Assembly: GCA_029260765.1 (NCBI GenBank)
Contig: JAJDCP010000004.1
Span: forward strand, 1 to 29,939
Source: Planctomycetota bacterium
Lineage (GTDB): Bacteria; Planctomycetota; J058; JAJDCP01
Length of the DNA stretch: 29,939 bases
Direction: 5' to 3'
Shown one piece after another: positions 3,383 to 5,025 of this stretch; the stretch's first letter is position 1; every line of letters starts with the position of its first letter. The position numbers were made by a program, and so were the translations under genes. The notes under the pieces are model-generated. The model made no database searches. It was not told where the DNA came from and saw nothing but the letters and a program-made list of their open reading frames with translations.

Positions 3383-4042
3383 ATGGCCCTGACTTTGAGC
3401 TTGCACAAACGGCGCGTGGTCGGCGTCTTGATGGAGAAGGCGCTGTCGACCCCTGATCAGTATCCACTGACCTTGAATTCCCTGGTTTCTGGTTGCAACC
3501 AGAAGTCGAACCGAGATCCGCAGTTGGAGATGACCCGGGCAGCTGTCGAAGACACGCTCGACGATCTGCGCGAGCAGGGTCTGGTGATCTTCGTCGACCG
3601 TGAAGGCGCCCGCACGAGGCGCTACAAGACCACCGCACGGATCGAGCTGGCGCTGGCCAGCGAGAAGGACATGGCGGTCATCGCCGAGCTGCTGCTGCGG
3701 GGCTTCGGCACACTGAACGAGTTGGTGCGGCGCGCCAGCCGCATGCGCCATAGCATCGATACCTCCGAGATGGAGGGCTTGCTGGAGGCGTTCACGCAGC
3801 GGGAGACTCCGCTGATCAAGAAGCTTCCGCGGGCTCCCGGTCAGAAGGAACCGCGCTACACCCACTGCCTGTGGGGAGAGGGAGAGGAGCCTGAGCCGCC
3901 CACGGGCACGAGCAGTCCCCGCGTCGCTGCGGCCCGCAACGCCCTGCAGAGCGAGGTCGAGACCCTGCGGGTCCGGCAGGCAGAGCTCGAGGCCCGGTTG
4001 GAGGCTCTGAACGCAAGAGTTGCTGAGCTGGAGGGACGCTGA
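3383..4042 (+). CDS. yceH: YceH-family protein (DUF480/UPF0502)
   Basis: ATG at 3383 preceded by GGAGGA. The translation MALTLSLHKRRVVGVLMEKALSTPDQYPLTLNSLVSGCNQKSNRDP...ELLLRGFGTLNELVRRASRM...KEPRYTHCLWGE...LEARLEALNARVAELE closely parallels enterobacterial YceH ([22 protein letters not shown]...LLLRGAQTPGELRSRAARM...RESRYMHLFSG...C-terminal coiled coil). Confidence 0.85.
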   Translation: MALTLSLHKRRVVGVLMEKALSTPDQYPLTLNSLVSGCNQKSNRDPQLEMTRAAVEDTLDDLREQGLVIFVDREGARTRRYKTTARIELALASEKDMAVIAELLLRGFGTLNELVRRASRMRHSIDTSEMEGLLEAFTQRETPLIKKLPRAPGQKEPRYTHCLWGEGEEPEPPTGTSSPRVAAARNALQSEVETLRVRQAELEARLEALNARVAELEGR

Positions 4043-4044
4043 GC

Positions 4045-5025
4045 TTGAGCAGCCAGGAGTGTCCCCGCTGCCGGACGCATCTGCAGAGCCCCGAAGAAGA
4101 GAACGGCCGTCTGCTCTGCGCCCACTGCGGGGCCGCTTTTGTCATGCGCGACGGCGTGCCTCTGCTGTTCCCGCGCCGCGTGGGCGGACAGGACGCGGAG
4201 AAATACGGCGTCGGCGATCTGATTCCACAGATTCCCGGGGTGCGCATCGAGAAGTGCCTGGGCCAGGGTGGTCTGAGCTTGACCTACCTGGGACGCCGCG
4301 GGGACCAGCCCCTGGTCATCAAAGCGATCTACCCCAGCCTCAGCCAGGCGAGCGACTTTGGTGAACAGCTGTGGACCGGTGCCCTCGAGCTGATGCCCCT
4401 GGCGTTGCCAGGGGTGGCACGCCTGCTCGGCAGCCACGTGTTCGAACAGGAAGAAGCGCGCGTCCACTGCCTGCTCTGCGAGTACGTCGAGGGCCCCAGC
4501 TTCCGTGAATGGCTGGCGACGACGAAACCCGCCCTCCCCGCTTTGCGGGCTGCCCTCGCCGAAGTGGCCCGATTGCTGGCGCGGGTGCACGCTGCTGGAC
4601 AATTGCACCTCAACCTCAAAGCAGAGAACCTGCGCATGCGCGGCGCGCAGCCTCAGCTGCTCGACCTCGGTCACGCCCGCCTGGTGGTCGGCAAGACCGG
4701 GCGGCCCGCCGAATTGCTGGTGCGCGCCCACGTCGATCTCGGTACGCAAGCCTACATGGCACCCGACCTGCGCGACCCCAAGCGTGAGCCCACGCCAGCC
4801 TCAGACATGTACAGTCTGGGAGTTCTGGCCTACGAAGCCTTCAGCGGCAAGATTCCATTCGATGGCCCGTGGGGCATCCGCGAGACGAGCATCCCCGCAG
4901 AGCTGCAGCAGACCGTCATCGCTCTGCTCGACCCCGATCCCGAGGCGCGACTGAGCGACGCGGGCGAGGCGGCCCGGCGTCTCGGCGAGCCACGAGCCTG
5001 GTGGCAGCGCTGGCTCGGGCGCTAG
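4045..5025 (+). CDS. Zinc-ribbon/protein-kinase-like protein, probable pseudokinase (HRD Asp replaced)
   Basis: TTG start at 4045, 2 nt after the yceH stop, with GGAGGGA 8 nt upstream. An N-terminal C-x2-C-x17-C-x2-C zinc ribbon (CPRCRTH...CAHCG) is followed by a kinase-like fold. It has a Gly-rich loop GQGGLS, VAIK-like LVIKAI, and HLNLKAENL in place of HRDLKPEN, so the catalytic Asp is Asn. DLG stands for DFG, APD for APE, and DMYSLGV is a subdomain-IX-like motif. Confidence 0.65.
   Translation: MSSQECPRCRTHLQSPEEENGRLLCAHCGAAFVMRDGVPLLFPRRVGGQDAEKYGVGDLIPQIPGVRIEKCLGQGGLSLTYLGRRGDQPLVIKAIYPSLSQASDFGEQLWTGALELMPLALPGVARLLGSHVFEQEEARVHCLLCEYVEGPSFREWLATTKPALPALRAALAEVARLLARVHAAGQLHLNLKAENLRMRGAQPQLLDLGHARLVVGKTGRPAELLVRAHVDLGTQAYMAPDLRDPKREPTPASDMYSLGVLAYEAFSGKIPFDGPWGIRETSIPAELQQTVIALLDPDPEARLSDAGEAARRLGEPRAWWQRWLGR

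Follow-up and report, generated by a model that had tools for sequence, protein, structure and literature searches.

What genes lie near the start of a 29,939-nt stretch of DNA from a Planctomycetota bacterium (NCBI GenBank assembly GCA_029260765.1, contig JAJDCP010000004.1, positions 1 to 29,939 of the forward strand; this whole stretch is called the window here), and could two of them, which meet almost stop to start, encode a functional pair? The two are a gene of the DUF480/YceH family and, directly downstream, a gene for a protein with a zinc ribbon and a Hanks-type kinase fold that is predicted to be a pseudokinase. On their other side lies a divergent gene for a major vault protein (MVP)-like protein. 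The features of the locus are as follows, L002 being one of two orthologous loci described below.

462 to 3230, minus strand: MVP-like gene, divergent to the DUF480 gene; 922 amino acids
3231 to 3382: divergent intergenic region of 152 bp, read from the sequence
3302 to 3331, minus strand: conserved noncoding block of 30 nt, GAGTCTACCAGGATCTTTCAGGGCGCTCCA, near-invariant in a three-way alignment
3344 to 3352, plus strand: TGGTAGGAT, a candidate extended -10 element for the DUF480–kinase operon, 30 nt upstream of the ATG
3373 to 3378, plus strand: Shine–Dalgarno (SD) sequence GGAGGA of the DUF480 gene, 4 nt upstream of its start codon (ATG, 3383); conserved in L002
3383 to 4042, plus strand: DUF480/YceH-family gene; 219 amino acids, ATG start
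4030 to 4036, plus strand: SD-like GGAGGGA for the kinase-like gene, within the 3' end of the DUF480 gene
4040 to 4047, plus strand: stop–start junction TGAgcTTG with a 2-nt gap, read from the sequence
4045 to 5025, plus strand: gene for a zinc ribbon and Hanks-type kinase fold, a predicted pseudokinase; 326 amino acids, TTG start
4060 to 4173, plus strand: putative N-terminal zinc ribbon with cysteines C6, C9, C25, and C28 (CPRC-x15-CAHCG) and a Trm112-like beta-hairpin tail, FVMRDGVPLLFP; cysteines and tail invariant in three orthologues
4606 to 4629, plus strand: catalytic loop HLNLKAEN, in which Asn190 (codon 4612 to 4614) replaces the HRD aspartate

This layout had been proposed in an earlier note made from the sequence alone, and its open reading frames (ORFs), 2-nt gap, TTG start, and GGAGGGA within the 3' end of yceH all lie where that note placed them. 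The junction reads ...GAG CTG GAG GGA CGC TGA gc TTG AGC..., with the DUF480 stop codon at 4040 to 4042 and the kinase start at 4045. Because an in-frame stop stands at 4024 to 4026 and the first cysteine of the zinc ribbon is residue 6, the TTG is the sole usable start of the kinase gene. The SD-like GGAGGGA lies 8 nt upstream of it (10 nt when counted from the GGAGG core at 4030 to 4034). GGAGG occurs 1.69 times per kilobase per strand in the window, so that by chance a copy would stand no more than about 12 nt from a given start in some 2% of cases. The motif is also constrained by the Glu-Gly codons of the DUF480 gene, and it therefore provides no independent SD signal. A terminator-like hairpin at 4113 to 4133 was rejected, as it falls within the coding region and such hairpins occur at the frequency expected by chance.

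Is the arrangement preserved among relatives? Among 5.8 billion proteins we found two orthologues of the kinase-like protein, at 76% and 61% identity; the next matches, at 35% or less, were generic kinases. A profile search of 1.84 billion representatives at 50% identity likewise gave one orthologous cluster (660 bits, with the next match at 173 bits), and metagenome contigs from JGI held no close kinase relative, their best match being 30% identical and located in large multidomain kinases without DUF480. The orthologous loci are L001 (NCBI assembly GCA_030428695.1) and L002 (Logan assembly of run DRR328265). All three loci that encode the kinase-like protein—the window, L001, and L002—share the same gene order (the MVP-like gene pointing away from DUF480, which is followed by the kinase), the same orientation, and a tight junction. 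The TGAgcTTG of the window is replaced by 4-nt overlaps in the other two (TTGA in L002 and ATGA in L001), and the kinase gene is preceded by GGAGG at equal spacing in L002 and by a weaker GGAAG in L001. Thus, the tight junction and plausible co-expression suggested earlier hold up, since the junction is equally tight in both orthologous loci despite its changed sequence.

Both genes also appear to be maintained. Pairwise ratios of nonsynonymous to synonymous substitution rates (dN/dS) are 0.12 to 0.31 for DUF480 and 0.16 to 0.42 for the kinase-like gene, at a dS of about 0.8 to 1.0, and thus indicate purifying selection on each. In L001, the genes flanking the trio to either side are not matched by any gene beside the window trio, a different plus-strand gene follows the kinase, and the trio is the only block collinear with the window; it therefore stayed together through rearrangements. 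This retention is modest evidence of linkage, resting on three loci. Taking junction and conservation together, we regard co-expression of the yceH-like and kinase-like genes as quite likely.

By its sequence, the product of the upstream gene is a bona fide member of the YceH family. It matches Pfam PF04337 with an E value of 7e-46 and 156.4 bits (gathering cutoff 25), residues 6 to 154 spanning positions 2 to 149 of the 149-position profile, and it matches Escherichia coli YceH (Protein Data Bank [PDB] 5vyv) with an E value of 1e-34 over residues 5 to 213. All of the residues that are invariant across the family in a 30-sequence alignment (R11, G14, L16, E18, K19, P28, Q40, R44, P46, R77, L103, R106, G107, E113, and R120) are kept. 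It is nonetheless no certified equivalog of E. coli YceH, as it misses the cutoff of NCBIfam PRK11239 (137.9 bits versus 321). Its AlphaFold2 model (predicted local distance difference test [pLDDT] 94.6) has two winged-helix domains followed by a long C-terminal helix of about 40 residues (179 to 218), as do the solved members of DUF480 (E. coli YceH/UPF0502, PDB 5vyv; also 3bz6 and 5u8j). The model resembles DNA-binding regulators, its winged helices being like those of the MarR, Fur, and BlaI repressors. The literature searched contained no functional study of YceH/DUF480, in agreement with the earlier statement that DUF480 has no established role; matches for a Bacillus subtilis "yceH" and a wasp-venom "DUF480x" proved to be unrelated proteins. 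The title of the PDB 5vyv entry, which has no accompanying paper, mentions "involved in membrane biogenesis."

What kind of kinase fold does the downstream gene encode? The protein scores 69 bits against Pfam Pkinase (PF00069; E value 5.5e-19, gathering cutoff 31.7), and its AlphaFold2 model (pLDDT 84, predicted template modeling score 0.80) is a bilobal kinase fold. The best structural matches by Foldseek are Mycobacterium tuberculosis PknA and PknB (E value about 5e-15, target-normalized TM-score 0.72 to 0.75), which are also the best sequence matches (E value about 2e-14). The model and the Pkinase score thus place it among Hanks-type Ser/Thr kinase folds. When the HLNLKAEN loop is aligned to HRDVKPGN of PknA, the catalytic-base aspartate is replaced by Asn190 and the arginine of the RD pair by leucine. 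Retained are the GQGG glycine loop, Lys93 (VIK, strand beta3), Glu107 (helix alphaC), Asn195 of the catalytic loop, and Asp207 (DLG, at the DFG aspartate), along with an intact activation segment and P+1 loop (GTQAYMAPD). The HLN motif, the four cysteines, K93, E107, N195, and D207 are invariant across the three orthologues, and K93 and D207 are also invariant in a 52-sequence alignment. All 113 of the nearest nonorthologous kinases carry aspartate at the HRD position and all three orthologues carry HLN; the asparagine is therefore fixed and derived. A pseudokinase is recognized from sequence by the loss of at least one of the beta3 lysine, the HRD aspartate, and the DFG aspartate (PMC12599244), a definition under which the kinase-like protein is a predicted pseudokinase. 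The residues it keeps and the one it lacks suggest that it most likely binds ATP, with poor or no phosphate transfer.

The N-terminal segment has two CxxC knuckles with a conserved beta-hairpin spacer, as in a generic Cys4 zinc ribbon, and is modeled with beta strands at residues 17 to 19, 22 to 24, 31 to 35, and 38 to 42 (pLDDT 71 to 78); we treat it as a putative metal site. Its four cysteines and the tail RDGVPLLF weakly resemble the Trm112 family, a resemblance only, as the matches to the Trm112p-like ribbon (PF03966; E value 0.0062, 16.9 bits versus 22) and to NCBIfam Trm112_arch (17.7 bits versus 77) both fall below cutoff. Domain matches, the HLN alignment, and the conserved cysteines agree with the earlier description of a zinc ribbon joined to a kinase fold that lacks the catalytic aspartate. 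We also considered an anti-phage defense kinase and rejected it: the matches are generic to kinase domains (Mad6, 66 bits versus 460; PglW, 27 versus 990; PADLOC PD-T4-6, at the domain level), and the context is one of housekeeping genes.

How does this protein compare with known kinases and pseudokinases? PknA and PknB share its glycine loop, beta3 lysine, alphaC glutamate, catalytic-loop asparagine, and DFG aspartate. Unlike them, it has HLN in place of HRD, no transmembrane segment, no PASTA or sensor domains, a length of only 326 amino acids, and an N-terminal zinc ribbon. A parallel in substitution pattern comes from human HER3 (HRN) and the JH2 domain of JAK2 (HGN), which keep the lysine and the DFG aspartate, have asparagine for the catalytic aspartate, bind ATP, and act mainly through allostery or scaffolding. 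Those are eukaryotic receptor and JAK contexts, and the parallel is a functional analogy only, homology being limited to the kinase fold. A further analogy, with no sequence relationship, is Rio2, which carries a winged helix and an atypical kinase fold—of the RIO and not the Hanks type—in one polypeptide.

Among bacteria, the families ActPs1 to ActPs3, GLW, CP1, DYD, and DLHK of the bacterial Ser/Thr kinase (bSTK) atlas also combine a Hanks fold with the absence of a catalytic-triad residue. A substitution of the VAIK lysine is seen in all seven, affecting all members of five of them, 34% of CP1, and 60% of DYD (bSTK atlas and review). ActPs2 likewise has asparagine for the HRD aspartate, but it is actinobacterial, with the lysine changed to arginine and the DFG deleted (PMC12599244). 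Judged by their published descriptions, none of the seven accommodates the window protein, which keeps Lys93 and the DFG aspartate, and no zinc ribbon or DUF480 neighbor is described for them ("zinc" and "winged" occur zero times in the text of the atlas). Its type of substitution, with the HRD aspartate lost alone and the lysine and DFG aspartate kept, is thus outside the seven described bacterial families, and on sequence grounds we regard it as a putative new, small pseudokinase lineage.

Zinc-ribbon Ser/Thr kinases (e.g., P0387, P0423, P0445, and P0505) do carry an N-terminal ribbon like that of the window protein, which we find in 11 of the 113 nearest nonorthologous homologues and in 18 of 149 representatives. 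All of these relatives combine canonical HRD and DFG motifs with a long C-terminal extension made up of transmembrane, repeat, or second kinase domains, whereas the window protein ends just past its kinase domain. Compared with such distant relatives, among which N-terminal ribbons are common, the window protein thus has the appearance of a zinc-ribbon Ser/Thr kinase that has been trimmed and catalytically disabled. As an analogy, M. tuberculosis PknG is a rubredoxin–kinase with a TPR domain, and rubredoxin has a CxxCG motif, which the second knuckle of the window protein, CAHCG, resembles.

The intergenic region connects the pair to the MVP-like gene. The product of this gene matches the Pfam families MVP_shoulder (E value 4.5e-14), Vault_3 (1.6e-07), and Vault_4, and it is 78% identical to its L001 orthologue and about 60% identical to homologues in Polyangium and Planctomycetes. 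Its start at 3230 is backed by orthologue alignment and matches the 922-amino acid NCBI product, so the 152-bp divergent region that the earlier note had assigned to both genes stands as described. The orthologous regions measure 142 bp in L002 and 136 bp in L001. Both the divergent arrangement and the 30-nt block at 3302 to 3331 are kept in all three loci, with little conservation in the intergenic sequence around the block, which is unique in the window (zero expected by chance). Elsewhere among the 98 loci, the intergenic regions of L001 and L002 contain its 13-nt core, CAGGATCTTTCAG, which has one further match, in the unrelated L037. Read on the minus strand, the block contains TTGGAG (3332 to 3327), an 18-nt spacer, and TGG TAGACT (3311 to 3303), a candidate sigma-70-type promoter with an extended -10 element for the MVP-like gene. 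The candidate extended -10 element of the DUF480–kinase operon, TGGTAGGAT, is identical in L002 and is matched by GGTAGACT at the equivalent place in L001. A consensus scan with a threshold of 9 of 12 matches called no promoter in the intergenic region, and neither that region nor the rest of the window contains an Rfam RNA element. We looked for a palindromic operator in the 152 bp and rejected one, because none of the repeats is shared by all three loci; for the AGTCTACC/GGTAGACT pair of L001, two divergent -10 elements are the better interpretation.

What do these observations amount to? The reading we prefer, with a probability of about one-half, is a lineage-specific two-gene operon whose products form a functional pair. 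We infer co-transcription, coupling, ATP binding without catalysis, a physical interaction, and a regulatory target in the following sense. The yceH-like and zinc-ribbon pseudokinase genes would be transcribed together from the 152-bp region shared with the MVP-like gene and, given the 2-nt gap and an SD inside the upstream gene, would be translationally coupled, so that the two proteins would be synthesized together at similar levels. In this way, a tandem winged-helix protein prone to dimerize would be co-produced with a soluble, nucleotide-binding, catalytically impaired kinase fold. Most probably, the kinase-fold protein would then act without catalysis, binding or switching the winged-helix protein in a nucleotide-dependent manner, and it might modulate the binding of nucleic acids by the latter. 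The pair might even affect expression of the adjacent MVP-like gene, control of which by the pair we nevertheless judge improbable.

Does DUF480 pair with a kinase elsewhere? The earlier note had suggested that a fixed partnership with a kinase-fold protein would be a clue to the function of DUF480. Several findings count against a functional pair. We searched the ORFs within 6 kb of 80 diverse DUF480 loci (37 to 45% identity, from species-representative genomes in many phyla) with kinase and DUF480 profiles, and none of the 80 had an adjacent kinase; two had unrelated large canonical kinases (kinase–lectin and kinase–HDOD) 0.9 to 2.7 kb away, a rate close to background. On adequate contigs, the three closest outgroup copies of DUF480 precede genes for Uma2, PdxA, and ribosomal protein L21, and not a kinase gene. 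No fusion of PF04337 with PF00069 was found among the matches listed. Five of five outgroup MVP-like loci (Polyangium, Planctomycetes, Thermoanaerobaculia, and two metagenomic contigs) lack both DUF480 and this kinase. The three loci that do have the pair are fairly close kin (61 to 81% amino acid identity), and their adjacency could in part be inherited synteny. Turning to the proteins, a winged-helix likeness is no proof of DNA binding, and the literature searched assigns no established function to YceH; the Asn-for-Asp kinases HER3 and JAK2 JH2 keep residual activity, which by analogy leaves "noncatalytic" unproven. Thus, the idea of a fixed partnership fails across the family, with adjacency kept in both close relatives and absent at all other loci examined, a split outcome for the refuting condition set in the earlier note. 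The pairing is real but clade specific and, being limited to three close relatives, says little about the function of DUF480 in general.

Could the two genes simply share an operon of convenience, co-transcribed through shared ancestry, with YceH as a housekeeping protein and the kinase-like protein serving other partners? The breadth of DUF480 speaks for this: it is widespread, its neighbors vary across phyla without a conserved partner, and none of the 83 other DUF480 loci has an adjacent kinase. The YceH of the window, moreover, keeps all family-invariant residues and has no obvious clade-specific domain, and the window and L002 share a downstream gene (orf531, below), so that some of the conservation is plain synteny. 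Set against these points are a junction that in all three loci remains tight (a gap of at most 2 nt, or an overlap of 4 nt) despite near-saturated dS and an altered junction sequence, the loss of synteny on both sides in L001 with the trio kept, and a kinase-like protein that is never found without an adjacent YceH (three of three loci). We therefore see independent products as a possible, somewhat doubtful, explanation. Alternatively, the kinase-like protein could have weak or atypical enzymatic activity, either phosphorylating a target (YceH, the MVP-like protein, or something else) or carrying out some other ATP-dependent modification. Its GQGG loop, K93, E107, N195, and D207 are retained and invariant and its activation segment and P+1 loop are intact; some kinases with asparagine at this position retain activity, and some pseudokinase folds catalyze other reactions, such as glutamylation by SidJ. 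Exchange of the HRD aspartate for asparagine is, however, the classical kinase-dead substitution, the HRD arginine has gone as well (to leucine), and the asparagine is fixed in three of three orthologues as opposed to aspartate in 113 of 113 nearest nonorthologous kinases, all of which makes an active enzyme unlikely.

A larger unit is also conceivable, in which the trio is one module and YceH and the pseudokinase form a dedicated regulator or accessory pair for the divergent MVP-like protein. The divergent arrangement and the 30-nt block are kept in three loci, no block other than the trio is collinear between L001 and the window, divergent regulator–target layouts are common in bacteria, and the winged helices of YceH are like those of repressors. 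Outside this clade, however, neither the five outgroup MVP-like loci nor the 83 other DUF480 loci combine the two, and the block is explained equally well as the MVP promoter (TTGGAG-N18-TAGACT, minus strand), with no palindromic operator evident; such a module seems to us rather improbable. The bacterial MVP-like family is itself large and unusually well conserved, with 983 matches at about 55 to 60% identity across Polyangia, Planctomycetes, and Thermoanaerobaculia, and its gene neighborhoods vary (loci L094 to L098). A 2019 preprint (10.1101/872010) covers bacterial MVP homologues, though not their gene context.

Clustering of neighbors recovered no gene conserved beside DUF480 across phyla; only Enterobacterales share a context, rimJ-yceH-yceM-murJ, which differs from the divergent MVP-like gene, yceH, and pseudokinase gene seen here. 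In the Enterobacterales loci (L031, L038, L043, L054, L057, L063, L068, L076, and L081), yceH thus lies beside murJ, and mycobacterial MurJ/MviN bears a fused pseudokinase domain (PMC12599244). The resulting triangle—YceH with MurJ, MurJ with a pseudokinase, and YceH with a pseudokinase—is curious and may be coincidence. An echo of this MurJ link would be a tandem winged-helix YceH and an ATP-binding pseudokinase that control, or physically join, a vault-like MVP particle, which we rate as a long shot. Were it true, such an MVP-particle module would offer the first functional handle on both DUF480 and the bacterial MVP homologues and would hint at a recurrent YceH–pseudokinase connection.

For the preferred reading of a two-gene operon with paired products, the interest lies in its two components. 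Three crystal structures are available for the DUF480/YceH family, which is widespread in bacteria and has no established role, and bacterial pseudokinases are only now being cataloged. Here, YceH seems to have acquired a pseudokinase as its obligate partner in an operon, beside an MVP homologue. Should the two proteins interact physically, they would make a tractable system for studying YceH ligands and pseudokinase signaling in bacteria. The operon is novel but very narrowly distributed, and its value is limited by a distribution over three related contigs from metagenomes or metagenome-assembled genomes, which makes it a weak clue to DUF480 function.

Downstream of the kinase-like gene, the window contains one further feature that borders the operon.

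5029 to 6624, minus strand: convergent gene of 531 amino acids (orf531), its stop 3 nt from the kinase stop; no Pfam, NCBIfam, or PADLOC match

L002 carries, downstream of its kinase gene, a homologue of orf531 (66% identical across the 115 available amino acids), and an unrelated plus-strand gene occupies that place in L001; orf531 is probably outside the functional unit. The kinase stop (TAG, 5023 to 5025) and the convergent orf531 stop (5029 to 5031, minus strand) are 3 nt apart, which leaves no room for a terminator, and the convergent transcripts must therefore overlap. In L001, a gene whose product begins MLKVLFKTVG... (11003 to 11094, plus strand), with a strong SD of GAGGAGG, starts 30 nt past the kinase stop; the window lacks a counterpart of this gene, and the operon of L001 may thus extend further.

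The remainder of the window is ordinary chromosomal sequence, with no defense or mobile island. Its other genes encode methylmalonyl-CoA mutase, a TPR–HATPase protein, a molybdopterin oxidoreductase with its Fe-S subunit, a CoA ligase-like protein, a T2SSE ATPase, and large FG-GAP and hemopexin proteins. The TPR-repeat protein (6399 to 7943, plus strand) has a C-terminal HATPase_c domain like that of a histidine kinase, with no recognizable match to HisKA or a dimerization and histidine phosphotransfer (DHp) domain; its true start is probably later, since the ORF overlaps the 5' end of the convergent orf531. At the contig edge, downstream of the MVP-like gene (63 to 426), are three scattered copies of one GC-rich repeat of 23 to 49 nt with an internal palindrome (63 to 85, 149 to 197, and 272 to 320) and two short tandem duplications (18 nt twice, 326 to 361, and 23 nt twice, 381 to 426), which look like intergenic repeats of the repetitive extragenic palindrome (REP) or miniature inverted-repeat transposable element (MITE) type. 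Farther downstream, a 1,450-amino acid hemopexin-repeat protein (15551 to 19903, plus strand) and an FG-GAP repeat protein (13170 to 13784, plus strand) are of the secreted type typical of Planctomycetota or Myxococcota.

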